DNA of 64,000 bases, taken from contig JABVCE010000008.1 of the NCBI GenBank assembly GCA_014905635.1, positions 310,001 through 374,000 on the forward strand, written 5' to 3'. The notes under the pieces are model-generated. The model made no database searches. It was not told the DNA's origin and saw only the letters and a list, made by a program, of their open reading frames with translations. Below are positions 9,574 through 62,583 of this stretch, piece by piece (position 1 is the first letter of the stretch; every line of letters begins with the position of its first letter). This DNA comes from Scenedesmus sp. PABB004 (taxonomy: Eukaryota). Both the position numbers and the translations under genes were made by a program.

Positions 9574-12554
9574 TCACTGCCGCGCGGCGTGCGGCGGGCG
9601 GGCCATGTCCCACAAGAAGATGCCCCCCTCGCCGCCCACGCTCACGATGGCGCTGCGGTCGGGCGCGACCGCGACGCCCGTGACCTCGCCGCTGTGGCCG
9701 ACGCCGACAAACGCGAGGGCGCCCTCGTCGTAGCTGCGGCGCGCAGCGGCCGGCGGGCGGGCGGTCGGCGGGCGGTGGGCGGTCAGCGCGCCCGGCAGCC
9801 AGCGCGGCCGGCGGCGGGGCGCGCGCGGCGGCTCACGCCCAGAGCTTGACCAGCTTGTCGCTGCCGCCCGACAGCAGCGCCTCGCCCTCCGCGTCGACGG
9901 CGAGCGTGTTGAGCTGCGCGCTGTCGCTGCCCTCGATCACGCGGATGGCCTGGCCGTCATAGGCGTCCCAGTAGGTGATCTGCGCGGCACGGCGCGGAGC
10001 GGCGGGCGGCCGGGCCACGGCCACGCGCGGCGGCGGCGGCGAGAGGGGTGGGGTACCGGCCAGGGCACGGCCGTCGCCGCCGCAGCGCTGCCCCCGCGGC
10101 GCCGCGCGCCTTGCGGTCGGTGCCGGCGGTCACGATCTGGCTGTCGTCGGGGTGGTACGCCGCGGCGAGGAAGAAGGTGTTGGCAAAGAGGCTCTGCCGG
10201 CGCCGCCCCGCGGCCATGTCCCAGATGATGACCGAGCCGTCGCTGCTCGCCGACACGCACTCGTCGTCGGACGAGGCCTTGACCGCGAGCGCGTTGACCG
10301 GGCCCTTGTGGTCCTTTATGCTCGCCTCCATGCTGCTCGCGCCGCCCTTGCCCAGGCGCCAGATGCGCACCATGCCTATGCGAGGCGGGGAGCGGGCGTC
10401 GGCGGCGTGGCGGTGCGCGTGCGCCGCCACGGGGCAGCAGCAGCAGGCGCGGGCGCTCGGCCGCGCCGGCGGCAGTCGTCCTCCCCTCTCCCCCTCTCCC
10501 CGCCCCTCAAGCCGCAGCCCTCCCGCCGCTGGCCCCCTGCGCGCGCACCCTCCTCGCCGCCGCTGACGATGCGGGCAGGGTCGCTCGTCGCGGCGAGCGC
10601 GGTCACGCCCTTGTGGTGCGCGTCGTTGATGGTCCACAGCAGCTTGCCGCTCTGCGGCCCAAAGCCGCGGATCTTGCCGTCGCTCCAGCCGCTGAGCAGG
10701 CACTTGCCGTCCTGCGCGGCAGCGACGGCCGCGGCGGCGGCGCGGCGGTCAAAGACACCGCAGCTTGCTGCCTGGCCGGCGGCAGCGGCCCCCGCGGCCG
10801 CGACTGCTGCGACGGCCGCCAGCGCTGCGGTGCGGTGCGGCACCGGCACGCACCGGCGCAAAGGCGATGCACTTGCAGTCCAGGTTGGGCAGGCTGATGC
10901 GCAGCAGCTCGCGGCAGCCGGCGAGGTGCCACACGCGCACGCCGCCCGCGGAGCAGGTCGCAAAGACCTCGCCGTAGCCGACCGGGAAGGCCAGGCCGTT
11001 GATGCGCCCAGAGTGCGCCGTCTGCACCAGCTCCTCGGCAAACCTGGCGGCCGCGGCGTCGCGCAGCGTCGGGCGCGCGGCGGCGCGCAGCCGGGCGCGC
11101 GCCGCCGGCGACAGCCGCGCCGCCGCGCTCACTTCTTGGCCAGCGGGTCGAACGTCACGCGGTAGATGTTGCAGCGGTCGGTGCCCACAAACAGCGTGTA
11201 CGTCAGCCCGCCGCCGGTCGGGCTGCGCCCGAGCGGCACCGCGCGCGCGCTGCCGGCGTCGAGCGCGATGCTGGTCACGCCCCCCTCCAGGCGCACGCTT
11301 GCGAGCAGGGCCAGCTTCTTGAGCTGCTTGGGGTTGACGGCGGTCGGCTCCGAGTCGGGGCTGAGCAGCGCGAGCGTGCCGTCGCCCGCGCCCAGCAGGA
11401 CCGCGCCCGACGGCGCCTCCGCCGCGGCGGTGACCGACATCTGCAGCGGGTGCTTGCCGGGCCCCGTGTTGCGCAGCAGCGCGTGCTCCAGGCTGACCTG
11501 CGGCGGCGCACGAGGGGGCGGCTCGCGCGCTGGGCCGGGGGCGGGGCGGCGCCGCGGGCACGCGGGCGGCGGGCGCGCCTGCAGCACGTCGCCGGTGGTG
11601 GTGCCGGCGTACGCAAACTTGTCGGCGCCGTCGACCAGCAGGCTGCGGAACTGGCGCTGCAGGTTGCCCAGCTTCACGTCCCTGGCGCGAAGGGCGGGGG
11701 TCGCGGCGCAGCGGCGGTCGGCCCGGCCGCCGGCCGCCAGCCGCCGGCCGCCAGCCGCCGGCACCGGCCCGGCCAGCCGCCAGCCGCCGCGCGCGCGCTG
11801 GGCGCTCACTCGGCGCGCAGCTTGTTGTTGGCGCGGTCGTAGGTCCAGACCTGCGGGGCGAGCGGCGCGGCCTCGCTCAGCCGGAGGCGGGCGCGCGCTC
11901 AGCGGCGCGGCGCGCGGCGGGCGGTTTGCGGGGACCTGCAGGTTGCCGTTGCCCGCCGTGATGAGCTTGTCGCTGCGCGTGTTGAGGAAGCGGCAGCAGA
12001 GCACAAAGTTCTGGTGCGTCGGGCTGCCGCAGATCGCCTCGCCGCTCTCGACGTCCCACAGCACCTGCGGGCGCGCACGAGCGTGGGCAGGCGCGCGAGG
12101 GCCGCCGCGACAGCCGCCGCGACCGCCGCCGCGCGGCGTGCTGCGCGCGGCGCAGGTCGCGCACCAGCGAGTTGTCGTCCTGCCCGCCCAGCGACGCGAG
12201 CATCGTCTCGTCCGGCGAGAACGCGAGGGCCTGGATCTTGACCTTTTGCAGCTGCAGCCGGTGCACGAGGCGGCGGGCGCCTACGTCCCAGATGATGACG
12301 TCCGCCGCAAAGCCCATGTACGTGAGCTGCCCGCTCGCGAGGAAGCGGCCGCTCGGCGAGAGCGCGAGCGCGCTGACGCGGTCGGTGTGGCCGCTCAGGA
12401 ACTCCTGCGCCTGCGGGTCGGCCTTCTCGCGCAGGACGACGGTCGAGCCGAGCGCGTAGACGAGCGTGCAGCCGTCGGGGTGCAGCAGCAGCCCGCCCGC
12501 GACGCCGCCGCCGAAGCCGATGCAGGCCTGCAGGTTGAGCGGCTCCGCCGCCAT
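9574..12554 (-). CDS. CFAP52: Cilia- and flagella-associated protein 52 (WDR16/FAP52), WD40 repeats; 9 exons
   Basis: N-terminus LNLQACIGFGGGVAGGLLLHPDG; LASGQLTYMGFAADVIIWD; SGWSDGKIRGFGPQSGKLLWTINDAHHKGVTAL; TAGTDRK|ITYWDAYDGQAIR; KLWAYDEG. All match FAP52. Confidence 0.92.
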
Positions 12555-13056
12555 GGCTGCTGCAGGCGCGCCAGTGGCGCCACGGCGGCGCGGCGCTGCT
12601 GTCGCGCCGCGTGCGCTCGTGCGGGCGGCTGCGGCGGGCTGGGCGGGCGGCGGGTCACGCCGTCAGGTCGTGCGTGGGCGGGTGGCACCACTGGCTGTGG
12701 CAGAGAGCGCCGCGCGCCACCGGGGCTGGGTGCGCGGCCGAAGGTTGACTTTTGACGGCGCCCCGCCGGCCGCTGCTGCCGGCGCCGCCGCCGCGGATGC
12801 CGCGAGCCGCTGCCTGGCCGCAGGATGACGCCCGCGACAGCTTACTTCGGCGGCCGGCCGATGCCGCCGACGCCGGCTGCGGCGGCGCTGCAGCGGGGCG
12901 CAGCCCACCGCAGGCGCCGCGCTGCGTCCGCTGCGGATGTGCGCTCAGAGACCGGCCGTCGGCAGACCCGTTTGCCCCCCAGCGCCGCGACAGGCGCCGC
13001 GCCGGCCCGCGCGCCGCCACCGACCGCAGCGCCCCCCGCGCGAGCGCAGCGACGCC

Positions 13057-19166: not shown

Positions 19167-20542
19167 ATGTCGGCGGAGGCGGGCGCGCGCCGCCGCCTGG
19201 GCGTGCTGGGGCAGCAGCTCGCCGGCGCCGGCGGGCCGGCGGGCGCGGCGGGGCAGCAGCAGCAGCAGCAGCAGCACGCGGCGACGCTGCGCCGCGCCGA
19301 CGCGGCCAGCGCCGGCGCCGGCGGCGGGCGGCTGTTCGAGGGCCAGGTCGTCGTCATCACCGGCGCGGCCAAGGGCATCGGCGAGGCCGCGGCGCTCGCG
19401 TTTGCGGCCCAGGGCGCGGAGCTGCTGCTGACTGACCTCGACGCCGCCGCGGTCGAGGCGACGGCGGCGCGCTGCCGCGCGGCGGGCAGCCCCCGCGCCG
19501 CCGCGGTCGCGGGCGACATCTGCTCGCCCGACGCGCCCGACCGCGTCGCGGCGGCGCTGCGGCAGCAGTTTGGGGGCCGCCTGCATGTGCTCGTCAACAA
19601 CGCAGGTCCGGCGCCGCGCCGCCGTGCCGCGCTGCGCCGCCGCGCCGCGCCGCGCCGCCGCGGCGCGCCGCGCCGCCGCGGCGGCGCGCCCGCAAGCACG
19701 CCGGCTCACCCCGGCGCGGGGCTCACGCCGCCGCAGGCTACACGCACGACGGCGTGATCCACAAGATGACCGACACGCAGTGGGGCGCGATGCTCGACGT
19801 CCACGCGACCGCGCCGTTCCGCATCATCCGTGGCCTCGCGCCGCTGCTGCGCGACGCGGGCAAGGCCGAGGCGGCGGCCGGCGCCGCGCCGGCGCCGCGG
19901 TCGATCATCAACGTCAGCTCCACCTCTGGCACGCATGGCAACGCAGGACAGGTCAACTACGCGGCAGCGAAGGCCGCCGTAGTTGGGCTCACCAAGACCG
20001 TAGCCAAGGAGTGGTGCGCCCGCGGCGCGGCGCGGCCGCCGGCGCGGCGCGCGGCCGCCTGCGCCGCGCGCCGCGCGCCGCGCGTTGTCAACGCCGCCGC
20101 GGGCGCCGCCGCCCACGCCGCTGCGCCGCGCGGCAGGGGCCACGTCAACGTGCGCTGCAACGCCGTGGCCTACGGCTTCATCGACACGCGGCTCACGCGC
20201 GAGAAGGACGGCGGCGAGGCGATCAGCGTCGGCGGGCAGCGCGTGGCGCTGGGCATCCCGGGCGGCGACGCGCTGCGCGAGCTCGCAGTCGGCGCCATCC
20301 CGCTCGCGCGCATCGGCAGCGCGGCCGAGGCGGCGGGGGCCATCCTCTTCCTCGCGTACCACCCCTGGTCGTCCTACGTCACCGGCCAGGCGCGCGCCGC
20401 GCCCGCGCGGGGGCGCCTCCGCCGCCCGGGCGCCGGCCGCTGACCGCCGGTGAGCCGGCGTGAGCCGGCGAGTCACCGCGCGCCGCCCGCCCCGCCACGC
20501 GCCTGGCAGGTGCTGGAGGTCAACGGCGGCTCGTACATGTGA
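19167..20542 (+). CDS. Short-chain dehydrogenase/reductase (FabG-like), likely peroxisomal (PTS2); 4 exons
   Basis: VVVITGAAKGIG, LVNNAG, NVSSTSG..GNAGQVNYAAAK (YxxxK), VRCNAVAYGFIDT, SSYVTGQ|VLEVNGG; N-terminal RLGVLGQQL. Confidence 0.92.
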
Positions 20543-29617: not shown

Positions 29618-30569
29618 TCAGTTCATCCGGCGGATGAGGTTGTTGATCTTCTGCTCGCGGTTGCCGGCCTGACCGCCCTCGACGAAGTGGAGGCGCTTCT
29701 TGTCGAGACCGCCGCGCGCGCTGCTGAGCTTGAAGGGCCACAGGAAGTTGGACGCCTCCTTGAACGCGGGGCCCACGGTGAAGATCTCGTGGATGAGGTC
29801 CTCCACGCACAGGATGTTCTTGGCGCCCAGCACCTGCGCGCGACGGCGCGGCGCGCCGCGCAGCACGGTCAGGCGCCCGCGCCGCGCCGCGCCGCGCCGC
29901 CGGCCGCCGCGTCGCGCCGCGCGCCTGCTCGACGATCTTGTTGTCGGTCAGCGGGATGCGGTTGCCCTGCACCTTGCCAAAGCCGCGCTTGTAGATGAGC
30001 TCGCGCACGGTCTTGAGGTTGGGGTAGCCCCACGCGATGTACGGCTCCACGCGCTTCAGCAGGCCCAGCGTGGCCTTGGTGATCTGTGCGCGGACGACGC
30101 GCACGCAGCGGCGGACGGCGCGCGTGAGCGCGGCGCGGCGCGCGCGCGGGCGCGAACGGACGGCGGGCACACCGGCGGCGCGGCCGGCGCGTCGCTGGCT
30201 GCTGGCTGCTGGCGGCGGCGCGCGCTGCTGCCGTGCTGGCGGAGCTGCCGCCGCCCGCCGCCTGGCTGCAGCCCGCCGCAGCCCGCCGCACTGCCGTCTG
30301 CGCTGCCGCCAGCGCTGCTCGTGCTGTGCGCGCTCGTGCGCTGCGAGACCGCCGCGCGAGCGCCGCGCACCCGCACAAAGACGCCGTTGTTGATCTGGCG
30401 CAGGCGCAGCAGCTGCAGGATCTTCTTGGTCTGCGGGCGCGCGGCGGCGGCGGCGGCGGCGAGATGCGTCGGCGCCGCGCGCTGCGCGCCCCGGGGCACG
30501 CCCTGCGCGGGACGCGGGACGCGGGCCCGCCGCCGCCCCGCCTGCCGCGGCGGCGCTCGTCGCGGTGCC

Positions 30570-30632
<63 letters not shown>

Positions 30633-44139: not shown

Positions 44140-47100
44140 GCGGCGGCGGCGGCGGCGGCGGCGCGGCCGCAGCCGCGGCCGCGTCGGCAGCCGCCGCCGC
44201 GGACGCGGCGGCGTCGGCCGCGCCGGCCTGGGACGGCGACGCCGGCGGCGGCGCCGAGGTGGAGGAGGAGACGGAGGAGGGGCGGGTCTACTGCATGTGC
44301 CTGCACGCGCATGAGGCCGACACCTTCATCAGCTGCGACGGCTGCGGGGACTGGTTCCACATCCGCTGCGCGGGCCTCTCCGCCGCGGCGGCGCGCGCGG
44401 CGCGCGACTGGGCCTGCCCCGTGTGCCTCGCGGCCGGCGGCGACCTGGCGGGCCTCGACGGCGTCGCGGACCGCCTCGCGCGCGTGCGGCGCCCGCTGCT
44501 CGTGAGCGCGCTGCTCGGCCTGCTGGCCGACGCGGCGCAGCTCGGCGTGGAGCTGCCCGAGGAGGCGACCGTCCACAAGGTTCTGGAGGAGTATGGCGCT
44601 TGGATGGTGAGCCGCGCGCGCGCGCGAATGCGGCGCGGCGGCGCGGCGCGCGCTGCCGCGCGGGGCGGGCGGGCCCGGCCTCGGCGCCCAGGGCGCCCAC
44701 CGCCGCCGCGCGCCGCCGCAGGGCGCGCTCGCGGAGCTGCTGCGTGGCCACGAGGCGGCGCTCGCCGCGGCGGCGGCGCTCGAGGCCGGCGGCGCGGCGC
44801 CGCAGGCCGGCGCGGCGCGGCCGCTCGTGCTGTCGGCGGCGGGGCTGCGCGCAATCGTGCGGCAGGCGGCGCTGATTGAGGTGTTCAGGGACGAGGAGGA
44901 CCCGGAGGGGGAGACGGAGGCGGAGGAGGAGGCGGAGGAGGGCCAGCAGCTGCAGCAGCAGCCGCAGCCGCCGCCGCAGGAGCAGCAGGAGCAGCAGGGG
45001 CAGGGGCAGCCGCTGCAGCAGCAGGAGCAGGAGCAGCAGGAGCAGCAGGAGCAGCAGCTGCTGCCGCCAGGGGGGGCGGTTGCGGCGGAGGGCGGCGGCG
45101 ACGGCGACGGCGGGGCCGTGCAGCGCCAGCCGGCCCCGCCTGCCCGGCCGCCGCCCGGCGCCGCCATCGCGGCCGGCGCCGCCGCGCTCGCGGCGGTCCG
45201 CGCAGTGGCCGGGGCGCCGCCAGCCCCCGCGGCGGCCGCGGCGGCGCAGCTCGCCGCGCAGGAGGAGGGGCTGGTGCCGTGGGCGCTGCGGCTGCTGCAG
45301 GGCGACAGCTGGCGCACGCGCGCGGCGCTGGCGCTCGCCCCCGGCGCGCGGTGCGTGGCGGGCGCGCCGCCGCGCGCCCGCCGCGCTGCCGCTTGCCGCC
45401 GCGCCTGCGCGCCCACCGCGCCGCCCGCCGCGCCGCGCGCAGGCCGTCGCTGGAGGACCTCGACGCCGTGCTGCGCGAGGCGGAGGCCGACGGCGCGGCG
45501 CCGCCGGGGCGGCGCGGCGCCGGCGGCCACCCGCCCGACCCGCTGCTGGCGTCAGTCGCGGCCGCGGCGGCGGCCGCGCGCGACTGGGCGACGCGCGCAG
45601 ACGCGCTCGTGGCGCAGCTCAAGGCCCTCAGCCGCGGCCCCTCGCGCCACGGCTGGGCGGCGGGCGCGGGCGCGCGGGCGGCGCGCGGCGGCGCGCGCGC
45701 GGCGCGGCGGCGCGAGCCTGTCGAGACCCGACGTCGCCGCGGCGGTCGCGCAGGCGCGCGCGCACCTGGCCGCCGCCGAGGCGCTGGCCGTCGACGTCGC
45801 CGGCGGCGTCGACGCGCTGTCGGAGCTCGCGCGGCCCTACTGCGTCTGCCAATGCCTCTACGACGAGTCGCGGCCGATGCTGGGCTGCGACTACTGCAGC
45901 GACTGGTTCCACTGGGACTGCGTCGGCCTGCCCCCGCCGCGCGACGACGCGGAGGAGGCCGCGCCGCCCGACTACAGGCGCGGCGGCCGGCGCGCGCGGC
46001 GGGCGCGGCGGCGGGCGCGGGGGCGCAGAGGGCGCTGCTGGGAGAGCGCGCGGCGCTCACGCCCCGCCGCGGCGCCGCCGCCGCGCAGGTGCCCCAACTG
46101 CTGCGTGGACGGGGGCGTGCACTACCCGCACCTCCACAGCATGCCCCAAGACCTCGCGGCCGCGCTGGCGCAGCGCGCCGGGCAGCAGCAGCAGCAGCAC
46201 GGCAGGGCGCGCGGCGGCGGCGGCGGCGCCGCCGCCGCCGCCTCGGCCGCCCCTGAGGAGCGGCCCGCCAAGCAGCAGCGACGCGAGGCCAGCGGCGCCA
46301 GCAGCAGCGCCGCCGAGCACGGCGGCGCGGCGGACGCAGCGGCCGCGGCGGCGGCCGCGGCGGCGTCGCGCGGCGCCGGCGGCGCCGGCGGCGGCAGCAT
46401 CGGTGGGCTGTCGCCCGCGGCTGGCGGGCTGTCGCCCGTGGCCGCCGCCGCGCTGGCGGCGGCCGCCGCCGCGGGCGCGCCGGGGCTGAGCGCGCTGCTG
46501 CTGGCGCACCAGCAGCAGGAGGGGCCCGCGCCCAGCGCGCCCGCTGCGGCGCGGGCGCTGCTGCAGGGCATGTTTGGCGGGCCCAGCGCCGGCGAGGCGG
46601 CGTGCGCGCCGGCGGCCGACACCGGCGGCGGCGCGGGCGCGGCCGCCGACCCCAGCGCGGCGTTCAGGGCCGTCGCTGCGCTGGCCGAGGCCGGCGGCGG
46701 CGGCCTCGGCGGCGTCAGCCTGGCGGGGCTGATCGCCAGCCTGCGGCCGAGCAGCGCCGCGCGGGGGCGGCAGGCCGCCCGCGCGCCCGCCGCCACTGCT
46801 GCGGGGGCGCCGGCGGGGGGCGAGGAGGCTGTGGCAGCTGCGGCGGTGGAATCGCTCGCCGCCGGCGCGCCGGAGCAGCCGGCGCAGGAGGCGGCGCAGG
46901 ACGAGCCGGCGGCCGCGGCCGAGGCGGAGGAGCCGGCGCAGCAGCAGGCGGAGGCTGAGCAGGCGGCTGCGCAGCAGGCTGAGGCTGCGCAGGCGGCTGC
47001 GCAGCAGGCCGAGCCGGAGGAGCCGGCGCTGCCGCAGGCGGAGGAGCCAGAGGAGCCGGCGCTGCAGCAGGCGGAGGCGGAGCAGGCGGCGGCCGCGGCA

Positions 47101-47949: not shown

Positions 47950-49249
47950 TCACGCCCAGACGCCGAGCACGCACATGAGCGCCGCGCCGAGCGCGAGCGC
48001 GGCGTACATGCCGCCGCGCAGGCGGCCGCGCACGAGCAGGTCCTCTCGGCTGAACTCCTCGGCGATGAGCTGGAAGAGCGCGATGTAGAGCAGCATGCCG
48101 CCGCTCACGCCGTTGAGCGTGCCTTGGACCGCGCGGCTCGTGACGGAGTCGGGGTCGTAGCTGCTGCTGATGGCGATGCCGATGGCGATGCCCAGCGGCG
48201 TGGTGAGGCTGTACACGACGAGCATCGCGAGCTTCTTGGCCGCGCTGAAGCGCGTGAGCGCGAGCACCGAGCCGAGCGCGAGCGCCTCGAGGCCCTGGTG
48301 CACCGCGAGCGCGACCATGAGCGTCACGACGAGGCGGCGGTCCGACGTAATGACGCCCACGCCGACGCCGATGATGACCGAGTGAAAGATGCTGCGGCGG
48401 AGGGAGAGGAGGGAGGGAGGAGGGAGGGGGCCGGCGGGTGGGCGGGCAGGGGGCGGCGGCGCGGGGCGCGCGGGCGCGGGCGCGGCGCGGCGCGGGCGCG
48501 GCGCGGCGCGGGCGGGCGGGCCGGCGCCGGGTCTCACCAGCCGAGCTCCATGGTGTACGCGGTCACGCACTGCCGCAGGCTGACCATCGACCCCGGGTCG
48601 CCGGCGCCGCTGGACACCCAGCCGCTCGCGTTGAGGCTGCGCAGGCACTGGTGCCCGTGCGCCGCGCCGCCCGCGCCGCCCAGCACCGCGGCCGCGTCCG
48701 CGCTCGGCTCGGCGCCGCGCTCGGCGCCGTCCAGCGCGTCGCCGCCGTCGACGGCGCCCTTGGCCGCCGCCGGCGCGGCCTGCGGGCCGTGGTGGTGCCC
48801 GCCGCCGCAGCGCTTGTGCGCGCCTGCCGGCGCCGCCGCCGCGCCGCCCGCGCCGGCGACGGCGGCGGCGTGGTGGTGCTCAGCGCCGTGCTTGGCGCCG
48901 GCGCCGCCCTGCGGCTGCTGCTGCTGGGCCGCCGCCGCTGCGGCCGCCGCGTCGTCCCGGATCTGCTGCTTGTACCCCGGCGGCGCGAGCCACGCGGCGA
49001 GGCTCGAGTCAAAGATCACGAGGCTCACGATGCCAAAGAGAATGGTGCAGCCGCCGATGGGGAACTCCATCAGCGAGTTGAGCTCGCCCACGGCCTGTCA
49101 GGGAGGGGCGAGGACGGGGAGGAGGGAGGGCGGGGCGGGGGTCGTTGAGTGAGGCGCGCGCGCCTCGCTCCGGCGCCGGCGCCGCCGCTGCCGGTGCCGC
49201 GGCTGCCGCCGAGCAGCGCCGCCGATCTGGCGGCTGCTGCCTGCCGGCG

Positions 49250-49281
<32 letters not shown>

Positions 49282-49852
49282 GCGCCTCGGGGATGATGTG
49301 GACGAGCGCGAGCGCGCAGATGACGCCGCCGCTGAAGGCGCGGAGGACGCGCGAGAAGGTCGAGTCGGGGTTGCGCAGCCGCAGCGTGATCAGGCCCAGC
49401 GCGGTCGCGGCCGCGAAGATCACGAAGATGGACGCAACCCTGCGGACGCGCAGCGGCGGCGTCGGCCGGCGGCGCAGCAGCGGCGGCGACGGCGCGACGG
49501 CGCAGCGGCGTGCGATGCCTGGCGCCCCGCCGAGCGGCGCGAGGCGCAGGTGCGCGCCGATCAGCGGACGACGCGGGGGCAGCGCCGCTTCGACGGCACG
49601 AGCCGGATGGCCGAGCGGCCGCCGGAGGCATGACCTCGCTCCCACCGCGCTGCGCCGGCCGCAAGCGCGCGAGGCCGCCCGGCGGGCGCACCTGAGCATC
49701 AGGGTCTCCTCCCCCGCGTGGCCGGCATCGAGCCCCGGCTGCTCCGCGTGCGCCTGCTGCGCGCCGGCGAGCTCCGCCGGCGCGCCGGCCGCCTCGCGCG
49801 CGCCGTGGCTGTGCCCCGGGCCCAAGAGAACGCGCTCCAGGAGCTCCCTCAT
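47950..49852 (-). CDS. ZIP-family (ZRT/IRT-like) Zn/Fe transporter; 4 exons
   Basis: LRAFSGGVICALALVHIIPE|A, His-containing loop, MELG.IFHSVIIG, ALAVHQGLEALALG, TTPLGIAIG, SGGMLLYIALFQLIAEEF. Confidence 0.94.
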
Positions 49853-50664: not shown

Positions 50665-51917
50665 TCACGCCGTCGCGGCGACCTGCACCGGCGCGGCCGC
50701 CGCCGCCGGCTCCGCCGCGACCGCGGGGTTGGCCTGCGGCGTGTTCTTCTCCGCCGGCGGCACGAGCTGCCAGAAGCGGCCCTTGGCGGCGGCCCAGTCG
50801 GCGAGCAGCGCCTTGGCCTTGGCGGAGCCGGTCTTGTCCGCGTGCGCGGCCACGAGGCCCTTGAGCTGCGCCTCGCCCGCGGGCGTGATGACGCGCTGGA
50901 TGGCAACGATCTCGGTGTTCACCTGCGCGCGCGTGCGTGCGTGCGTGTGTGTGCGTGTGTGCGTGTGTGCGTGTGTGCGTGTGCGGGGGGGGGGGGGGAC
51001 GCTTGAGGCATGCGCGGTGTGTGGCTGCGCGCGGGGGACAGCTGTACGCGGGGCCGCCGACCCCGCCGCCCACCCCGCGCCCGCCCCCGCGCTGCCCGCG
51101 CCCGCGCGTGCGGTGCTGCCCGCCGCCGCGCGCCTTCTCCGGGAAGTCTCCCTCGGGGTCGTAGAAGTAGCCCAGCCCGCCGGTCATGCCCGCGCCGACG
51201 TTGCGGCCGACGGGGCCGAGCACGACGACCGCGCCGCCGGTCATGTACTCGCAGCAGTGGTCGCCCGCGCCCTCCACGACCGCGTCGGCGCGGCTGTTGC
51301 GCACCGCAAAGCGCTCGCCCGCGCGGCCGTTGACGAAGAGCCGCCCCCGGTCGCGCCGTAGAGGCAGGTGTTGCCGACGAGGCTCGCCTCCTCCGCCGCA
51401 AACGGCGAGGCGGGCGGGGGCACGATCACGATCTCGCCGCCCGCCATGCCCTTGCCGACGTAGTCGTTCGCCTCGCCCGTGAGGCGCACGTTGAGGCCTG
51501 CGCGGGCGCGCGTGCGCGCGCGCGCGAGAGCGCGCGGCCGCGGCGGCGGCGGCGCGTCAGCGCGCGGGGCGCGGGCGCCGCCGCGGGGAGCGACGGCCGC
51601 GCCGCCGCCGCCGCCTGCAGGCGCCGCCTGCAGGCGCCGCCTGCAGGCGCTGCTGCTGCTGCGCCGCCGCGTGGCGGCGCGCACCCGTGGCGAGGAAGAC
51701 GCCGAAGCTCTGCCCGCCGCTGCCGGTGAGGGAGAGGTTGATGGCGCCCTTGAAGCCGGCGTCGCCGTAGGGCTTGGCGATCGCGCCCGCGACGCGGCCG
51801 AGCGCGGAGCGGTCGACGTTGACGATGTCGTACGCCTTGCTCACCGTGCCCTGCGTGTGTGTGGGGTGCGTGTGTGGGGGGTGCGTGTGTGAGAGACGGG
51901 TGAGGGGCGCGCGTGAG

Positions 51918-52135: not shown

Positions 52136-53845
52136 GGCCTCGGCCAGCCGCGCGCACCTGGGTGCGGATGGCCTCCTGCACCTCCTTGTCGGCCAGGATG
52201 TCGTCGTCAAGCTGGTGCCCGTTGCTGTGCGTCGCGGCGGCGAGGCGCACGCTGCTGTCGCCCGAGGGGCCGGCGTAGGTGGTGAGGAAGCTCAGGTCCA
52301 GGCCGCCCGTCTTGGCGAGCGGCGCGTCGCGCTGGGCGAGGTAGTCGGCCCGGCCGACGAGCTCGTCCAGGCTGCGCAGGCCGAGCGCGGCGAGGCCCTC
52401 GCGCACCTGCGGGGCGCGGCGCGGCGCGGCCGCGGGCGCGGGGTGGACGGGCGCAGGGTGGGCGCGGGGTGGGCGGCGCGGGTCGCGCGCGGGGCGCAGG
52501 GCCGGCGGCGCGGCGCAGGCGGCGGGCGCGGCACCGCGCGGCGGCGGGGCCTTGCTGGTGGCGGGCAGCTCGCACAGAAGCTGGCCGCTGCCAGCAACGC
52601 CCCGCCGCCGTGCGGCGCCGCGCCCGCCGCCGCCGACGCGGGCGCGACGGGCGCGCCCCAGCGCGCACGCCCCACCCAGCGCGCACGCCCCACCCAGCGC
52701 GCATGCGCCACCCAGCGCGCGCAGCGCGCGCAGCACACAGCGCGCACAGCGCGGCGCCACACCTCCTCTGCCACAAAGTGGAAGAAGTTGACGAGGTCGG
52801 CCGGCGCGCCGGGGAAGCGGGCGCGCAGCTCCTCGCGCTGGCTCGCGACGCCGACGGGGCAGTTGTTGGTGTGGCACACGCGCGCCATGATGCAGCCTGT
52901 GGGCGGCGGCGCGGCGGGGGGCGGCGGTGCGTGCGTGGGTCGCGGGCGCGGGCGCGGGCGCGGCACGCAGCTCACAGCCGCCGGTGCTGCCCCTCTAAAG
53001 CCCAAAACCCACCCGTCGCGATCATGGCCACGGTGCCAAAGCCGTACTCGTCGGCGCCGAGCGCCGCGGCGACGAGGATGTCGCGCCCGCTGCGGAAGCC
53101 GCCGTCGGCGCGCAGCACGACGCGCTCGCGCAGCTCGTTGCGCACGAGCACCTGGTGCGTCTCAGCCACGCCCATCTGTGGCGCGCGGACGCGGGCGCGG
53201 GCAGGGGCGCGCAGCGTGAGCGCGGGCGCAGCGCGAGCGCGCGGGAAAGGGGGCGCGCGCGGGGCGCCGCAGCCGCCGCAGCCGCCGCCGCAGGCGCGGC
53301 GTGCGCGTCACCTCGACGGGCCCGCCCGCGTGCTTGATGCTGCTGATGGGGCTCGCGCCCGTGCCGCCGTCGTGGCCGCTGATCTGGATGACGTCGGCGT
53401 TGGCCTTGGCCACGCCGCTCGCGACGACGCCGATGCCCGCCTCGGCCACGAGCTTCACGCTCACCTTGGCCGCAGGGTTGATCTGCGCGGCGCGGCGCCG
53501 GCACCGCCGTCAGCCGCGCGCCCCTGGCCCTTGGGCCCGAGCCTCGCCCCGCCCCGCCCCGCTCGCGCGCCCCGGCTCGGCCCGGCTCGCGCGGCCAGCG
53601 CGGGGCGGCGGGGCTGCAGCCCCGCCGCCGCCGCCGCCGCGGCGGCGTGTGCGCGCGCGCGTCGCCGCGCAGCGCCCCCCTCCGTGCGGGCGCATGCTGT
53701 GGCGCGCGCCTGGTGGAGGTCGTAGATGAGCTGGGCGAGGTCCTCAATGCTGTAGATGTCGTGGTGCGGCGGCGGCGAGATGAGGGGCACGCCGGGCTTG
53801 CTGCGCCGCAGGTTGGCGATGTACGGCGACACCTTCTTGCCCGGC

Positions 53846-53877
<32 letters not shown>

Positions 53878-56800
53878 CGTGGAGCGGCGGGCGGGGCGCG
53901 GGTTGGAGGAGGGGGGAGGGGGGAGGAGGAGGGGGCCAGGTCAGCGTGCAGCGCACGCGCCGCCGCAGCCCGGCGCGCGCGGCGGGCGCCGTAGCCCGCT
54001 AAAGCGCCGCCGCCGCCGCCGCGCCCCCCGCCGCGCCTGCGCGATCTTGATCTCCAGCTGGTCCGCGTTGACCAGGAACTCGGGGGTCACGCCGAAGCGG
54101 CCGCTCGCGACCTGCTTGATCTTGGACGTCGCCGTGTCGCCGTTCTGAGCGGCGCGGCGGCGGGGGCAGGGAGCGCGCGGGCGGGCCGGGCGGCGGGCGG
54201 GCGTGTGGGCGGGCGTGCGTGGTGCGGGGAGGCGCGGCGGCGCGGCGGCGCAGAGACGCGGCCCCGCGCGGGCAGCTGGCTGGGCGCGCGAGTCGACGCA
54301 GCCCAGCGCCGGCCGCACCTGCAGGCCGCGCAGGTAGGGGAAGGTGGCGCTGCTGCCGTCGTCGGCCGCGTCGCTGAGCGGCGTCCAGCGCACGGGGTCC
54401 TCGCCGCCCTCGCCGCTGTTGGACTTGCCGCCGATGCGGTTCACCGCGACCGCGATCGTCTCGTGCGTCTGCGCGCCGCAGGGACGTCGGGGCGCGCCGG
54501 CGCGCGTGCGAGCGTTCGTGTGAGCGCTCGTGACGTGCGTGCGTGCGTATGCACGTGTGCAGGGCGCCGCCGCGCGCGCGCCGCCGCCGCGAGCACGCGC
54601 CGCGTGCCGCCCCCACCCCCACGCACCTCGCGGCTGATCGCGCCGAGGGACATGCCGCCGGTGCAGAAGCGGCGCATGATCTCGGCCGCCGGCTCGACCT
54701 CGTCGACGGGGATGGGCGCGCGGCCGCTGTCGAGGGCGAGGCAGTCGCGCAGCACGTGCGGCGGCGCGCTCTCAAAGTGGGCCATGTAGGCGGCGTATGC
54801 GCTGGCGTCGGGGGCGCTGCCGCTGCCGAGGCCGATCGCCTTGTGCAGCAGCTTGGACATGGTCTGGTTGTTCGCGTGGTACTCGCCCTTGACGGCGGGG
54901 TCGGCGGGGGAGGGTGGCCGAGCGGCGCGGGGCGCGGCGCGGGTCAGGGCCAGGGTTTGCGACGCAGGGCTGCGGCGGCGGCGCGGCGGCGCGCGCGCGC
55001 GCAAGGGAGCGCGCGCACGGGAGCGCGCAGGGGGGGCGTGTGCAGCGGAGAGGGCGCGCACATGCGCGTGCACACACACACGCACCTTGGTCTTGGACTG
55101 GATGAAGCCGTAGTCCTCCAGCTTGGCCATGGCCTTGGCGGGGAAGCCCTGCGGACGCGCGCGCGGGGGTGGGTGGGGGAGGCGCGTGTCACGCAGCATC
55201 AGCGCCAGGGGCACAGGCTAGGGCGGCTGCGGGGCGCGGCGCGGTCGCCGGCAGAGAGCCGCCGCCGCCGCGCGCCCCCCCCCCTCCCGCGGCGCGCCTT
55301 GGCCCAGAAGCTCTCCGCCTCGCGCTGCAGGTCGGCCAGGGACATGCCGCCGATGCGCGACACGCTGCCGGCGAAGCAGGCGTCGATGACCTCGCGGCTC
55401 AGGCCGTACGCCTCAAAGATCTGGGGGTGTTGGGGGGGGGGGGGCAGGGTTACGGCAGGGTCGAGGCAGGGTTGAGGCAGGGTTGAGGCGCGGCGCGGCG
55501 CGGCGCGGCGGCGGCGAGTGGTGCGCGGGGGCCGTGCGCGGCGGTGCGCGGGGGCCGTCCGCGGCGGTGCGGTGCGCGGTGGGCAGTCTCAGTGTGTGTG
55601 TGCCTGCCGTCGCACGGTCGAGTCGCCGGCGGACACGCACGCTGAGGCCGCCCGCCGCGCACGCGCCCGGCCACCGCGCGCGCGCGCGGATCAACGCACC
55701 CCCCCCCCCCCCTCATGCCCCCCTGCGGTGGGCAACACCGACTGCAGTCGGTGTCGCCGACTCAAGGTTGACCTCTTCACACGTGACGAGGTTGACCTCG
55801 AGTCGGCGACACCGACTGCAGTCGGTGCCCCCCGCCCCCCACGTGCGCACATCCACGCACCCACCCACCCACCCACCCACCCACAAGCACACACACACCC
55901 GCCCGCCCACCCCCACCCCCCACGCACACCCCCCACGCACACCCGCCCACCCAGCCGCCCACGCCCACCTGGGCGCCGTGGTAGCACGAGAGGAGGGAGA
56001 TGCCCATCTTGGAGAGGATTTTGAGGATGCCCTTCTCAAGGCTCTTCTTCAGGTTCTTCTGCGCGTCGCCGACGCTGATGTCCGGCACCTGGCGCGGCGG
56101 CGGGAGTGGCGAGAGCGGTGAGAGTGGTGAGAGTGGTGAGGGTGGTGAGAGTGGTGGTGAGAGGGTGTGAGAGAGGGAGGTTCAGGGCTGGCAGGAGGGG
56201 CGAGGCGGGCGCGGGCGCGGGGCACACGCGCACGCGCGCGCGCGCGGCAGGGCCTTGATCCTTTGTGTAATTGTGCTTCACTCGCCTTGCCGGTCTTGAT
56301 GAGCGACTGGGTGCGCGACGAGAGCCGCCACGCGCGCGCGGTCTCATAGGCCAGGTAGGGGCAGAGCGCGTGCGCGCCGTAGCCGACCAGCATCGCCGCG
56401 TGGTGCGTGGAGAAGGCCTGCGCCGTCTCGACCACGATGCTCGTGTCGCTGCGCAGGCCTGCGAGGCGCCAGAGAGGGGGAGGTGGTGATGGTGTGAGCG
56501 TGTGTGTGGGGGGTGTCGGTGGCGGGAGCCGGCGGCAGGCGCGGCGGCGGCGCGGGGGCGGCGCGCGGCGCAGCACGCGCAGCGTGCGCGTCGCGCGCGT
56601 CGCCGCACCGGTGCGGATGAGGTGGTGGTGCACCGCGCCGGTCGCGAGCAGGGCGGGGATGGGCACGACCTCGGGCGCCATGCCCTCCTGGACCGAGCGG
56701 TCGCTCAGCACGACGCACTGGCAGCCCCCCTTCACCGCGGCCTCGACGTCGGCGCAGAGCTTGGTCAGCGCCGCCGCGAGCGCGCCCTGGACACGGCGCG

Positions 56801-57427
56801 GCGCGGCGCGGCGCGGGGCGGGCGGCGCGCGGGGCGGGCGGCGCGCGGGGTGAGCCGCAGCCACACAGCTGGGCCGTCGGCGCGCGGGCGCGGCGGAAAA
56901 CCCCAACCCCGCAGGCGCGCGGGCGCGGGGTGCCGCACCTGCTCGCCGGCCTTGAAGGAGATGGGGAACGTCTTGCTGCCCAGCTGCTTGTCCGCCGCGA
57001 TGGCTGCCATCTGGCCCTCCAGCAGGATGGGGCTGTTCAGCAGCACCTGAGGCAGCGAGCGGCAGCGAGCGGCAGCGAGCGGCGGCGGGGTGAGGCAGGG
57101 GGAGCGGGGCGGCGGTGGTGCGGGGGCGCGCACGCACGGCGCCGGCGGCCGCCGCTGCTGCGCTGCCGGGTGCGGCTGCGCGGCGCGCGCCTGGCGGTAT
57201 GTGTCGGGCCCGGGCGCGAGCAGGTTGCCGCGGCCGCCGAGGCGCATCTCCAGGGACATGACCAGCCCCTCACGCAGCGGGTCGATGGGCGGGTTGGTCA
57301 CCTGCGCAGCGCAGCGGGGTTTTTGCAGCGGCGGTGAGCGGCGGCGCGCCGAGCGGGACGGCCGCTCGCGCAGCGCGGACAAAGCAGCAGCTGCTCAAGA
57401 CAGCAAACGGTGCGGCCGCGCGCCCCG

Positions 57428-57467
<40 letters not shown>

Positions 57468-60400
57468 CCTCCCTGCCCGCGCCACGCGCCTGTGCGAAGC
57501 GCTGCTTGAAATAGTTGTAGAGCATGTGGGGCTTGTCGCTCAGCACGGCGAGCGGGATGTCGTCGCCCATGCAGTACGTCGGCTCCACGCCCGCGCTCGC
57601 CATGCCCTCCACCACCATCTGAGCGTCCTCCGCGCCCATGCCGTTGGCCGCCTGGGGGAGGAGCGGCGGGCGCGGGGAGGAGGAGCGCGGGCGGCGGCGG
57701 CGAGCGCGGTGGGCGCGCGCGGCGGCAGGCGCAGCGCCGTGCACGACGCGCTGCCCGCGCTGCGCCGCGTGCTGCACGGCCCGCGACCACGCACCTGCAG
57801 GCGCAGCAGCGCGGCAGTCTCCATCGCCGCCTCGCCCGGGTAGGTCGGCGGCGACATCTCGTCGAGGCGGCGCAGGCTGCTGCCGAGCCACGCGCCGTAC
57901 GGCTGCCGCGACGCGGCGGCCTTGGAGATGGCCGCCGTCTCGGCGAAGCTGCCGGTCGCGAGGTCGGCGCAGACCATCTGCCCCGGGCCGAGGCGGCCCT
58001 TGGCCACGATGTTGGCGGCGTTGCTTATGACGTCGCCGAGCACGCCGACCTCGCTGGCCACGTAGATGGTGTCGTCGGCGGTGCGCCAGAAGCGCGCGGG
58101 GCGCAGGCCGTTGCGGTCGAGGCGCGCGCCGACGCGCAGGCCGTCGCTGAAGACGAGCAGCGCGGGGCCGTCCCAGCCCTCCTGCAGGCCCTCGTAGAAC
58201 TCGTAAAAGTCGACGACCTGGCGGTCAACGCATGGCGGTCAACGCACGGCGGTCAATGCATGGCGGCGGCGTGGCGGGCGGGCCGCGCGCGGCGGGCGCA
58301 GCAGCGCGGCGGCCGGCGACGACATCAACCGCCGCCCCCAAAACCCGTAGCCCGTGCCCCGCCCACAGAACCCTGCTCAAAACCCCGGCGGCAGGCGTGT
58401 CACCTCGGGGTACTCCTTCATGAGGTCGGGGTGGTTGCGGAAGGCCTCGGGCACCAGCAGCATCAGCGCCTCCTGCGGCTCCGCGCCTGCGCGGGCGCGC
58501 GGGGACGCGCACGCGCGCGCGCGTGGGCGAGGGGCGCGGCGCGACGGCGCGGGGCGTGACGAGTGCGCGGCCGGCGGGAGGGCGGAGCGCGCGGGAGGCG
58601 CAGGCGGGCGGCGCGGCGGGGCGCGTGCCGCGGCGGCACAGGCGCGAGGCGCGGCGCACCCGTGCGCACGAGCAGCTCAGCGACGTGGTCCAGGTTGGCG
58701 GAGTCGCTCTCGGCGGCGTTGCAGAGGGGCATCAGCTGGCCCTCGCGCCCGCCCCACACGGGGTGGCTCAGCTCGCTCTGGCGCGACGCGATCCAGTTGA
58801 GGTTGCCCTGCAGCGTGTTGATCTCGCCTGCGCCGGGAAGCGGCGGCGGCAGCGGGGCACGAGGGTGGGCGCGAGCGGGCTGGCGAGAGCAAGCGGCGCC
58901 ACGGCGGAGCGCAGGGGCTGCTGCTGCCGCTACGCGGCCGGCGCGGCGCTGCGCGGCTGGCGCGGCGCGGCGGCGCGCGCACCGTTGTGGCCCAGCACGC
59001 GCATCGGCTGCGCCAGCGGCCACTTGGGCGTGGTGTTGGTGCTGAAGCGCCTGCGCGCGCGCGCGGCGGGCGGGCGCGCGCGGCGGGCGTCGGGCGCTGC
59101 CGCCGCCCCGGCATCGCCCTCCCCCCTGGGCCCCTGCGCGCGGGCGCGCCGCCGGGCCGCCGCCGCGTCGCCGCCGCTGCGCCGCTGCGGCGCGCGCCTG
59201 TGGTAGATGGCAAACGCGGTCTCATAGTCGGGGTTGACCAGGTCCTTGTAGAACTGGCCGACCACCACCGAGCGCAGCATGCCCTGCGCGGAGGGGCGGA
59301 GCAGCAGCAGCCGCGGCCGCGGCGGCGGCGTCAGGCGCGCGCCGCGCAGCGCAGGGCCTGGAGTGTCTGTGCCCTGCGCCCCGAGCCCCCCGCGGCTGCG
59401 CTGCGCGGCCGGCGGGCAGCGGGCGTGCCTTGTAGACGATGGTGCGGTTGGAGAGGGTGCAGACGTAAAAGTCGTCGGCCGCGGCGCCCATCGCGGCGGT
59501 CTTGGCGCGCTCGACGAGCTTGCGCACGATGAAGAGCTGGCGCTCGAGCTCGTCGCCCGTCTGGCCCGGCTTGCCCTGGATCAGGACCTGCCAGATGCGC
59601 GGCTGCGTCGCCTTGGCGAACCGCCCGACCACGGCCTTGTCCACCGGGACGGCGCGGTAGCCGAGCAGGCTGAGCCCCTCCGCCGCCACGACCTCCTCCA
59701 GGATGGCCTTGGCCTGCGCCTCCAGGCCGTCGTCGTTGGGCAGGAAGAGCATGCCCACGCTGCGCGCGCGCGCGAGAGCGAGAGAGAGAGAGACAGGTGC
59801 GAGTGAGGGCGCGTGAGGCGGCCGCGGTGGGGCGCGGCGGCCGGGCGCGGGCAGCGTGCGCTCGCTGGCGCGGCGCGCGGGCGCGGCGGGCACGGCGGGC
59901 GCGCGCGCACCCGGTGGTGGCCTCGTTGGCGGCGGGGAACTCCTTCTGCAGCAGCTTCCAGGGGATCTGGGTCATCAGCCCCGCGCCGTCGCCGCTGTCG
60001 TCGTCGGCCGAGCACGCGCCGCGGTGCTCCATGCAGCCGAGCGCGCGCAGCGCCTGCAGCGCGGCGCGGCGCGGCGCGGCGCGGCGCGGCGCGGGGCGGC
60101 GTCGGCCGCGGCGCGCGCGTGGGGCCGTGCGGGCGAGCGCCGCGGGGGCGGTTGCGGCGGTTTGCGCGGGCCGGGTGGCCGCCACCGAGCGCGGGCTCCC
60201 GCCGCGACGCGCAGCTCGGTCCACGCGCCGCCGGCAGCTCGGCCGAGGCCAACCGCCGCTGGCCTCGCTCGCGCGCGTGCCGCGAGCCGTGCTGCCACGC
60301 CGCCGGCGCTCGCGCGCGCGCCGCGCTGCCGCTGCGCCGCCGCGCCGCGCCGCGCCGCGCCGCTCGCCGCCGGGGCGCGCACCTGCTCCACGATGGTGTG

Positions 60401-61101
60401 GCTCTTGACGCTGCGCAGGTTGGCGATGAAGCCCACCTGCGGGCGGGGCCGGATGGCGGGGGGTGATGGCCGAGCCACGCCGGCCGCTGCTGGCCCAGCG
60501 CGCCGCCCGTGCGCCCGCGCGCGGGCCCGTGGCGACAGCTCACCCCGCAGGCGTCGCGCTCCTGCAGGATGGTCTCGAGGTCGGCCGCCACGGGCGCGGG
60601 GCAGGCCGCAGCAGGCGCGGCCACCCCCTCGCCCGCCTCCGCCTGCGCCGCGCTGGGCACCCAGGCGGGCGCGCCGGCGCGGCCGGGCACGGCGCGGCTC
60701 GCCCGGCTCACGGCGCGAGCGCGCGGCGCGCCAGCGGCGCGCCCAGCCTGCGGGCAGGGCGCGCATGCGAGTCGGAGGATAGCCAGCGCCTCGCCGGGGC
60801 CACCGCAGGGCCGGGCCGGCCCAATTGGGCACGCCTCGAGTCGACGCCGCGCCACTGCGCCGCCCAGCGGCCCGCCAGGGCCCCCAGGCGCGGCGCAGTG
60901 CGCCGGCGATGGCCGCGGCGGGCGCGCTGCCGGGCGGCCGCGGCGGGCCCCCGCCGCCCCCCTCCGCACCTGGGGCGCCGCCAGGGGCGCGGACCGGCCA
61001 TGCGGCAGCGGCGCCGCGCTCAGCACATGCTGCTGCTGCCGGCCGCGGAGCCCGCCACCGAGGCCGGCGGGGCCCGCACCGCGGTGCGCGCTGAGCTCCA
61101 T
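50665..61101 (-). CDS. GSF1: Ferredoxin-dependent glutamate synthase (Fd-GOGAT), chloroplast; about 29 exons; apparent 1-bp frameshift near 51346
   Basis: Transit peptide then [109 protein letters not shown] (3Fe-4S), [21 protein letters not shown]; ends without a fused NADH beta domain. Confidence 0.97.
51919..52131. repeat. (GT)n (about 51919-51970) and (GGC)n (about 52048-52131) microsatellites in a GOGAT intron
   Basis: Directly visible. Confidence 0.95.
55736..55827. repeat. 92-bp inverted-repeat element with perfect 28-bp arms and nested palindromes, in GOGAT intron 55421-55968
   Basis: caccgactgcagtcggtgtcgccgactc ... gagtcggcgacaccgactgcagtcggtg are exact reverse complements. Confidence 0.95.
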
Positions 61102-61352
61102 GCTGCTGCTCTCAGCGCCGTTGTGACCCGCGCCGGGCGCGGCGGGCGGCCTGCAGAGCAGCAGCAGCGGCGCAGCGGCGGCGGTGCAGCGAAACCCTCG
61201 AGCGGCTCCAACCAGGGCGCTCGCGGGCTCCGCCCGCCCCGGACCGCCGCGCATTGCCGACCGGGCCGCCGCCGCCGAGCGCCGCGGCCGCCGCCGCCGC
61301 CGGCACCGCTCCCGACCGCACGCGCGCGCCGCCAGCCGCCGCCGCCGCCGCA

Positions 61353-62583
61353 ATGGCGGCCGCCCCGCGCGCCCTCGCGGCCGCGCAGCCCTGCACCACC
61401 CTGCCGCGCGCAGCCGCCCGGCCGCCGCCGCCGCTGCGCGCGGAGCGGCAGCAGCGGCGACCGGGGCGGCAGCAGCAGCAGCAGCAGTCGCAGCAGCAGC
61501 ACCGCCGCGCTCGCGGGCCCGCGCCGCCGCGCGCCACCCCGGGTGCGGCCGCGGAGCACGCCGCCGCCGCTCTGGGTCCTCCCCCGCCGCCTCACCGCCA
61601 CCGCCGGCCCGCGCCAGGCCTGGGCGACGAGGAGCTCGACGTCGCCGTCTTCCGCTTCACGCTCGGCATTCCGGGCTTTGACGACGCCAACATCCCCCGC
61701 GTCGTCGGCGCGGCCGTCGCGGCGCTCGTCGCGGTCAACCACGCGCTCGGCGCCGACCCCGCGCCGCCGGCCCAGGCGCGCGCGCGCCGCCGCCGCGCAA
61801 GCGGCGCAGGGGCGACGGCCGCCGCGCCCCCCCCCCCCCCCCCGCGCGCCCCGTCGTGAGAAGACCCGCGCCCGCGCCGCCGCAGGTGCGCGCGGAGTTC
61901 CTGGACGTGCTGCTCGCGGTGCTCTGCTTTGCGGCGCCGGAGCTCGAGGCGCGCCTGCGCGAGGCGGGCCCGGGCCGCGGCCGCGCGGGCGCGGGGCAGG
62001 TCGCGGGCGCGGCGCAGCTGTTTGCGCTCGCGGAGGGCCAGTCCGAGGCGGCGCGTAAGGAGCTGGCGTGGGCGTCGTTCGCGCTGCTCAAAAACGTCAA
62101 CGCCTGCAGCGTGGTGCTGCTGCAGCCGGAGCGCGGCGCCGCGCTGCTCGCGCGCGGCGCGCTCGCCGCGGCGGCCGTCGCCGGCGGCGACGCGGCGGTC
62201 GCACTTGCGCACGTCGGCGCCGACGCGCGCGACGGCGGCGCCGGCGGCCTGCTGCAGGGCGGGCAGCAGCAGCGCTGGCTGCCGGACCGCGGCGCGATGC
62301 GGGCGGCGGGCGTCGCCGGCTGGGCGTGCGTGCCGGAGGGCGCGCAGTCGGCGCTCGTGCAGGCGGTGCCGGGCGGCGCGCTGCTGCTGGTGCTCGGCGA
62401 GCGACCGAGGTGCGCGCGCGGCGCGCGCGGGGCGCGCGCGGGGCGCGCGCGGGGCGAGCATGGCTGCGGCGGCGACCTGACGCCGCACGTGCAACGGCCG
62501 CCCGCCGCAGGGCGCTGTCGGACAAGGACCAGCGCTGGGTGGCAGCGCTGGCCGCCAAGCTCGGCGGCGTGCTGGCCGCGTGA
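61353..62583 (+). CDS. CCB2: Cofactor assembly of complex C subunit B protein CCB2 (cytochrome b6 heme ci attachment); about 4 exons
   Basis: Transit-peptide-like N-terminus; ELDVAVFRFTLGIPGFDDANIPRVVG, AQ|VRAEFL, ELAWASFALLKNVNACSV, RPRALSDKDQRWVAALAAKL. Confidence 0.88.

Follow-up and report, generated by a model that had tools for sequence, protein, structure and literature searches.

Frequent GC-AG introns, with donors following exonic AG, in a very GC-rich stretch of Scenedesmus sp. PABB004 DNA

Gene content and base composition of the window

The window analyzed here is a stretch of 64,000 nucleotides of Scenedesmus sp. PABB004 DNA (contig JABVCE010000008.1), to which all coordinates below refer, and the feature in question is the 5′ splice site (donor) of its introns, many of which appear to begin with GC in place of GT while keeping an AG acceptor. 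Intron-rich eukaryotic genes were named in the window using Pfam and homology. They encode RPL31e, a CTP_transf_1 enzyme, a TPT-family transporter, CFAP52, HscB, an AP2-domain protein and an SDR; a PHO4 phosphate transporter, RPL7 (uL30), a KDM5-like JmjN-ARID-PHD protein and a ZIP transporter; and a ferredoxin-GOGAT (Fd-GOGAT), CCB2 and a pherophorin-like protein.

The closest proteins to a 141-residue exon of the Fd-GOGAT were those of Tetradesmus obliquus (81% identity), Volvox, Edaphochlamys and Tetrabaena (77%) and Monoraphidium (72%), and the protein search with this exon found no GOGAT at least 90% identical to that of the window. On sequence affinity, the window is nuclear DNA of a chlorophycean green alga. 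Its G+C content is 75 to 83% in every 4-kb bin, and third codon positions reach 97.6% G+C over the 2243 codons validated below, while the 36 validated introns are 83% G+C, with 46.7% C, 37% G and 8.5% T. The sense strand of these introns is C rich (46% C, 37% G) where a T-rich pyrimidine tract would be expected. We know of no eukaryotic nuclear genome with a higher G+C content, if the window is typical of its genome. An Rfam scan of the 64-kb window gave no match, hence no small nuclear RNA (snRNA) gene lies within it.

GC donors placed by protein homology

A reading of the sequence alone had listed about 20 GC donors between positions 9574 and 62583. All 20 coordinates carry AG/GC on the strand given (the slash marks the exon-intron boundary), 17 in the form AG/GCGCG, two as AG/GCACG and one as AG/GCGAG. 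Homology fixed 13 of the 20 to the residue, and the other seven were placed by a gene model (Table 1).

Junctions were determined with a purpose-written dynamic-programming protein-to-genome aligner, which tracks intron phase and in which the permitted donor and acceptor dinucleotides can be set freely at equal penalty. Leaving both donor and acceptor free was uninformative, as junctions can then slide. With all 16 donor dinucleotides permitted at equal cost, 36 introns, 27 in Fd-GOGAT and 9 in CFAP52, were placed without ties, and these constitute the validated set used throughout. They comprise 25 GT and 11 GC donors, the latter exactly at the positions that the sequence-only reading had proposed.

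Aligned to a Tetradesmus protein (P0153) with any donor and an AG acceptor, Fd-GOGAT yielded 29 introns, of which 18 had GT donors, 9 had GC donors and 2 were doubtful. The nine GC donors are the nine listed beforehand, and each was the sole donor with the best score. A transcript-derived protein from MMETSP (P0178) gave the same 27 core introns. Left out of the validated set were both doubtful calls, a CC "intron" within the transit peptide, which is not conserved, and a 32-nucleotide GG "intron" that proved to be a frameshift. Three additional calls with P0178 were also left out: this GG frameshift artefact, placed near 51,345, and one GG and one GC call in the region of the N-terminal transit peptide. 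At 51314 to 51354 on the minus strand, a single-base frameshift lies within a conserved Fd-GOGAT exon (GXGXG domain), the conserved stretch resuming beyond a G/C run in a different frame. Both the aligner and the ab initio parser described below bridged this frameshift with a fake intron of 32 to 41 nucleotides. The frameshift is either an assembly indel or a real lesion, and an assembly indel is likely.

The cost of restricting the donors was read from the alignment scores obtained with P0153 and AG acceptors. Fd-GOGAT scored 6283 with GT alone and 6737 with GT plus GC, compared with 6609, 6626, 6513 and 6488 when GT was paired with the control dinucleotides GG, CG, CC and GA, respectively; GT donors with any acceptor scored 6448. 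The ranking of the donor pairs was unchanged with three other queries. The control pairs make up some of the lost score at a neighbouring site, at the expense of a few residues, and GC regains the most.

CFAP52 gave the same nine introns with all five homologues (one MMETSP transcript, Chlamydomonas eustigma, Monoraphidium, Raphidocelis and one further) when any donor was permitted, seven with GT and two with GC, at 11578 and 10109, besides query-specific short artefacts in variable loops. For RPL7, four exon-bearing frames were aligned one by one to solved ribosome chains, and both GC junctions proved gapless on PDB chain 8ip8_CB, that of donor 29924 falling at the same residues on chain 9bh5_CF. 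From these gapless alignments to transcript-derived or solved proteins we infer that introns are removed from the mRNA at the 13 homology-fixed GC sites. One search of sequencing runs with the GOGAT region listed none derived from RNA.

Share of GC donors

GC-AG introns usually make up about 1% of introns. Among the homology-placed introns of this window they account for 11 of 36 (31%), far above that level as the sequence-only reading had claimed, with 9 of 27 in Fd-GOGAT; RPL7 has 2 of 4. The earlier count of 20 among about 97 introns is a plausible and sensible lower figure for the region. The ab initio parser finds about 105 introns in this range, and it calls too many GC donors where the KDM5-like gene is of low complexity. 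The share in the window is roughly 20 to 35%, the exact value being uncertain.

Donor and acceptor signals

GC donors had been said always to follow exonic AG, and in the validated set AG occupied positions -2/-1 at 11 of 11 GC donors versus 12 of 25 GT donors (Fisher P = 0.0026, or P = 0.0011 with the two RPL7 sites added). Put the other way, donors after AG numbered 11 GC and 12 GT, and donors lacking it 0 GC and 13 GT. GT donors are mostly GTGCG, again as proposed (15 of 25; GTGAG, 4 of 25), and the GC donors track this local consensus, with G at +3 in 10 of 11, C at +4 in 10 of 11 and G at +5 in all 11. Taking both classes together, +4 is C in 26 of the 36 validated donors.

The motif itself is informative. 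On the sense strand of Fd-GOGAT and CFAP52, 9 of 10 occurrences of AGGCGCG are donors (antisense, 12 occurrences), as are 7 of 8 occurrences of AGGTGCG (antisense, 1 occurrence). AG/GCGCG is as good a donor signal as AG/GTGCG.

Within the validated set, acceptor scores of GC introns exceeded those of GT introns (median, 5.6 versus 3.1; P = 0.016), and intron length did not differ between the classes. No clear branch-point consensus was found in the 36 validated intron tails, and CTRAY occurred in the last 60 nucleotides of only 5 of 36. The minor (U12-type) donor GCATCC was absent from all 11 GC donors (ATCC at +3 to +6), no U12-like branch box appeared among the enriched 5-mers of the 36 tails, and all-against-all BLASTN of the 36 introns returned 5 short low-complexity matches and no intron family.

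Introns at the same positions in relatives

Metagenome contigs were scanned with the GOGAT exon, giving 80 loci, most of them intronless, and intron positions were compared as residue and phase of P0153. A comparison with lower-GC relatives, which the sequence-only reading had suggested as a way to detect GT-to-GC switches, showed that 6 of the 9 GC-donor positions of Fd-GOGAT are occupied by a GT intron at the same position and phase. A locus of 51% G+C (L079) has GT introns at 657/0, 891/0 and 1140/0, and one of 53.5% G+C (L005) has GT introns at 620/0, 810/0 and 1085/0, where the window has GC at all six, after the same exonic AG. Among the 80 loci, only these two share positions of the window's GC-donor introns. 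Positions of GT introns in the window are also common to relatives, namely, 341/1 and 425/0 with L079 and 114/0 with L005, L006 and L007. The shared positions and phases mark these as old introns; therefore, the difference sits at +2. By parsimony, the change from T to C at +2 would have happened in the lineage of the window.

One further metagenome contig (L002, 71.6% G+C) carries an apparently intronless Fd-GOGAT that matches the Tetradesmus protein at 75% identity in a single tblastn piece of 1495 residues, in contrast to the at least 27 introns in the GOGAT of the window.

Sites placed by the ab initio parser

The seven remaining sites were assessed with an ab initio parser, which combines codon log-odds from the validated exons with donor and acceptor weight matrices that exclude the terminal dinucleotides, and which permits GT and GC equally. 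On its two training genes, and hence in sample, it recovered all 36 validated introns, with one or two extras, at all parameter settings tried. Across the window it found 19 of the 20 listed GC donors, missing only 30912, and all seven sites without homology support (20390, 33521, 34118, 40377, 45978, 49285 and 61776) were among those picked. Forbidding GC donors within 250 nucleotides cost 11.4 to 37.4 bits at these seven sites and 15 to 44 bits at six homology-supported donors.

Protein profiles fit several of these junctions. In the SDR gene, the exon upstream of 20390 ends at position 227 of 236 of the adh_short_C2 profile and is followed by a 10-residue last exon; the intron at 33521 separates positions 2 to 62 of the ARID profile from positions 71 to 89; the exon upstream of 49285 matches the Zip profile through its last residue; and the CCB2 exon after 61885 begins at position 28 of the CCB2_CCB4 profile. 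The intron at 45978 to 46088 has no codon periodicity inside and a CxxC just past its acceptor; these 111 nucleotides are open in frame, and the intron may be retained. On the parser's evidence, the seven donors are probably real.

For the KDM5-like gene, plant JMJ17 and four short algal fragments were too distant to fix junctions by homology, and since the free-donor aligner gave dozens of spurious low-complexity introns, its structure follows the ab initio model. This gene (plus strand, 33.1 to 46.2 kb) contains very long low-complexity Ala/Arg/Gly stretches. In its JmjC region (35900 to 36750, plus strand), the positions that we take to be the iron-binding HxE/D...H are not conserved relative to plant JMJ17, and, judged from these residues, the protein may be a demethylase homologue without catalytic activity. 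In RPL7, a strong three-base GC periodicity at 30511 to 30690, inside the 482-nucleotide intron (30431 to 30912), misled the parser into a mini-exon; this stretch gave no Rfam match.

Table 1. GC-donor introns of the window, with the evidence that places each
Feature	Position	Strand	Evidence
CFAP52 intron, donor 10109 (AAG/GCGCGC), AG acceptor	9980..10109	-	5/5 homologues, any donor allowed
CFAP52 intron, donor 11578 (CAG/GCGCGC)	11498..11578	-	5/5 homologues
SDR last intron, donor 20390 (CAG/GCGCGC)	20390..20509	+	Ab initio parse, 21.6 bits, profile fit; model level only
RPL7 (uL30) intron, donor 29924 (CAG/GCGCGC)	29834..29924	-	Residues 173/174 of 8ip8_CB and 9bh5_CF
RPL7 (uL30) intron, donor 30912 (AAG/GCGCGC)	30431..30912	-	Residues 100/101 of 8ip8_CB; missed by parser
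KDM5-like intron within ARID domain, donor 33521	33521..33713	+	Ab initio parse, 18.2 bits, split ARID profile
KDM5-like intron, donor 34118 (AAG/GCACGG), low-complexity region	34118..34241	+	Ab initio parse only, 37.4 bits
KDM5-like intron, donor 40377	40377..40503	+	Ab initio parse only, 11.4 bits
KDM5-like intron in C-terminal PHD finger, donor 45978, phase 2	45978..46088	+	Ab initio parse, 26.1 bits
ZIP transporter intron, donor 49285 (GAG/GCGCGC)	49095..49285	-	Ab initio parse, 31.3 bits, Zip profile
Fd-GOGAT intron, donor 51133	50923..51133	-	Tie-free any-donor alignment, P0153 and P0178
Fd-GOGAT intron, donor 53709	53483..53709	-	Tie-free alignment; GT in L079, same position/phase
Fd-GOGAT intron, donor 54036	53875..54036	-	Tie-free alignment; GT in L005, same position/phase
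Fd-GOGAT intron, donor 55297	55149..55297	-	Tie-free alignment; GT in L079, same position/phase
Fd-GOGAT intron, donor 56285 (AAG/GCGAGT)	56089..56285	-	Tie-free alignment; GT in L005, same position/phase
Fd-GOGAT intron, donor 57190	57047..57190	-	Tie-free alignment; GT in L079, same position/phase
Fd-GOGAT intron, donor 57489	57302..57489	-	Tie-free alignment; GT in L005, same position/phase
Fd-GOGAT intron, donor 59197, phase 2	59051..59197	-	Tie-free alignment, P0153 and P0178
Fd-GOGAT intron, donor 59428 (AAG/GCACGC)	59284..59428	-	Tie-free alignment, P0153 and P0178
CCB2 intron, donor 61776	61776..61885	+	Ab initio parse, 20.1 bits, profile fit; model level only

Comparison with known systems

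The observation is confirmed for this window, and the pattern itself is already described in other GC-rich algae. GC-AG introns were called "extraordinarily abundant" in GC-rich species, at 39.6% in Aureococcus anophagefferens, 22.2% in Micromonas pusilla and 7.7% in Chlorella sp. (Iwata and Gotoh 2011, PMC3033335), and later estimates for Aureococcus and Pelagomonas are 14 to 17% (2024 preprint, bioRxiv 10.1101/2024.10.30.620910). The window resembles these species, whose genomes exceed about 65% G+C, in having tens of percent of major-type GC-AG introns; two of them are green algae, and the authors blame G+C content (PMC3033335). It differs from them in being far more GC rich and in coming from a chlorophycean relative of Sphaeropleales and Chlamydomonadales, with a share taken from one 64-kb window. 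The strict requirement for exonic AG found here is not stated for those species in the portion of that report available to us. In Emiliania huxleyi, 56% of 241 curated junctions were GC-AG, some confirmed by reverse transcription-PCR, and this was ascribed to a genomic G+C content of 65% (Feldmesser et al. 2014, PMC4028052). That haptophyte likewise has very frequent GC donors and keeps the AG acceptor, but GC is its majority class, whereas the window keeps a GT majority and confines GC to AG-preceded sites.

In animals and plants, where GC-AG introns are 0.4 to 0.9% of the total (PMC1557818), far below the share estimated here, the C at +2 of a GC donor mismatches U1, and the other donor positions, exonic ones included, lie closer to consensus (Sheth et al. 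2006, PMC1557818; Kralovicova et al. 2011, PMC3167603). Ostreococcus lucimarinus, an intron-poor species, has GT donors with a GTGCGTG consensus and a strict ACTGAC branch box (Irimia and Roy 2008, PMC2483917). It is thus another green alga with an atypical GTGCG donor instead of GTRAGT, unlike the window in that the genes here are intron rich, carry many GC donors and show no strong branch motif. Our search of the literature on GC-AG introns in green algae and Chlamydomonas found no report for a chlorophycean of such G+C content.

Origin of the GC donors

The sequence-only reading connected the GC donors with extreme base composition, and this connection is upheld by the 83% G+C of the introns, by the GT at six of nine positions in the 51% and 53.5% G+C loci, and by the published cases (PMC3033335, PMC4028052 and bioRxiv 10.1101/2024.10.30.620910). 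Most probably, the window holds major-type (U2-dependent) introns of the ordinary kind, in a chlorophycean nuclear genome very rich in G+C, where T at +2 has changed to C by drift toward G and C and the C has been kept at strong donors. Strong drift of this kind would replace T by C at +2 in a large minority of donors, and the C would last only in donors whose other positions are strong enough for recognition even though C mismatches U1 snRNA; a strong donor here presumably follows exonic AG and has G at both +3 and +5. The outcome would be the share of GC-AG introns estimated above, with AG/GCGCG donors beside a local GT consensus of GTGCG. The analysis observed where the junctions lie, the dependence of GC on exonic AG and, in lower-GC relatives, GT at matching intron positions; the explanation would further have the change run from T to C, through mutation or conversion bias, and be accommodated by an unchanged U1.

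Base composition bears on how strongly +2 is constrained. Because the introns are 46.7% C and 8.5% T, an unconstrained +2 would be mostly C, and 25 of 36 validated donors keep T; therefore, selection for T persists. It would seem to be overcome only at donors with exonic AG, which would amount to the known compensation for a U1 mismatch, acting under very strong GC pressure.

Several points weigh against this picture. Splicing was deduced from protein homology and coding signal only, and 7 of the 20 sites depend on a parser trained on validated GT and GC donors. When its donor was left free in nontraining genes, this parser called GT 40, CG 16, GC 14 and CC 9 times, and because it also called CG and CC so often, its calls are too noisy to establish GC use by themselves. 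The GC donors are distributed unevenly among genes, the PHO4 gene (24390 to 28206, minus strand) having 13 predicted GT donors and no credible GC donor. With GT and GC permitted, the parser placed 18 GC donors among 31 introns of the KDM5-like gene, 12 of them without AG and with poor donor scores; these 12 would break the AG rule if real, and they are regarded as mostly false and were not counted. Another extra AG-less GC donor (GG/GCGCGC) was called at 60643 to 60742 on the minus strand, in the GOGAT transit-peptide region, where homologues disagree on the solution, and it would be an exception to the rule if real. Both lower-GC relatives are metagenome contigs, so the ancestry rests on parsimony.

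The sequence-only reading had also raised variant U1 or U6 snRNA or relaxed proofreading at +2. The corresponding rival explanation is a change in the spliceosome of this lineage itself (the U1 5′ end, the U6 ACAGAGA box, U1C or Prp8), by which GC would be recognized about as well as GT. The near-equality of GC and GT among AG-preceded validated donors (11 versus 12) fits such a change, as does the predominant C at +4, which departs from the textbook GTRAGT donor, and the GTGCGTG donor of Ostreococcus led its authors to raise snRNA changes (PMC2483917). A penalty at +2 that persists would predict the absence of GC from all 13 AG-less validated donors, however, and +2 still carries T far more often than the 8.5% background. 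In addition, Aureococcus and M. pusilla are rich in GC-AG introns with a putative U1 5′ end that matches the consensus (PMC3033335), and the strict need for exonic AG resembles ordinary compensation with an unchanged U1 rather than relaxed recognition (PMC1557818). We consider a changed spliceosome unlikely, and by analogy with other systems snRNA adaptation would not be needed. Similarly doubtful is the proposal that an exon-final AG makes GC and GT donors interchangeable, the check on +2 being relaxed (through U1/U6 RNA, U1C or Prp8) beyond mere tolerance of a mismatch.

It is very improbable that the GC donors are errors, either of base calling or assembly at +2 or of gene models with a true GT site nearby. 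At least one single-base indel is likely in the assembly, within the conserved GOGAT exon, and with GC dinucleotides this frequent a flexible model readily places donors on them. But GT-only models lose 69 to 86 score units in CFAP52 and 454 in Fd-GOGAT, with conserved residues deleted or inserted, and GC outscores four equally common control dinucleotides. Nor would errors pick only AG-preceded sites or the intron positions of other algae, and the sole visible assembly fault is an indel, not a substitution. Micromonas pusilla, which is rich in GC-AG introns, is known for introner elements, and the donors here look stereotyped (AG/GCGCGC), as recently spread mobile introners or U12-type introns might. 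Yet the BLASTN comparison revealed no family, 6 of the 9 GOGAT GC introns lie at positions common to other algae, and the GCATCC donor and a U12-like branch box were both missing, with CTRAY in 5 of 36 tails; an origin as introners or U12-type introns is hardly credible.

Implications

With ordinary U2-dependent introns under GC drift as the preferred explanation, no new question is opened, since published accounts of the phenomenon, and of what probably causes it, go back to 2011. The finding adds one more, and more extreme, data point linking genomic G+C content with GC-AG introns, and it gives a clean view of compensation, with GC only after exonic AG. Gene finders and read mappers that assume GT-AG will mismodel about a quarter of this organism's introns, a failure of annotation already reported in Emiliania huxleyi (PMC4028052), and the AG/GCGCG donor rule can be used in annotation. 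If the check on +2 were indeed relaxed, and the window typical, this alga would offer a natural system for the evolution of 5′ splice-site proofreading under extreme base composition.

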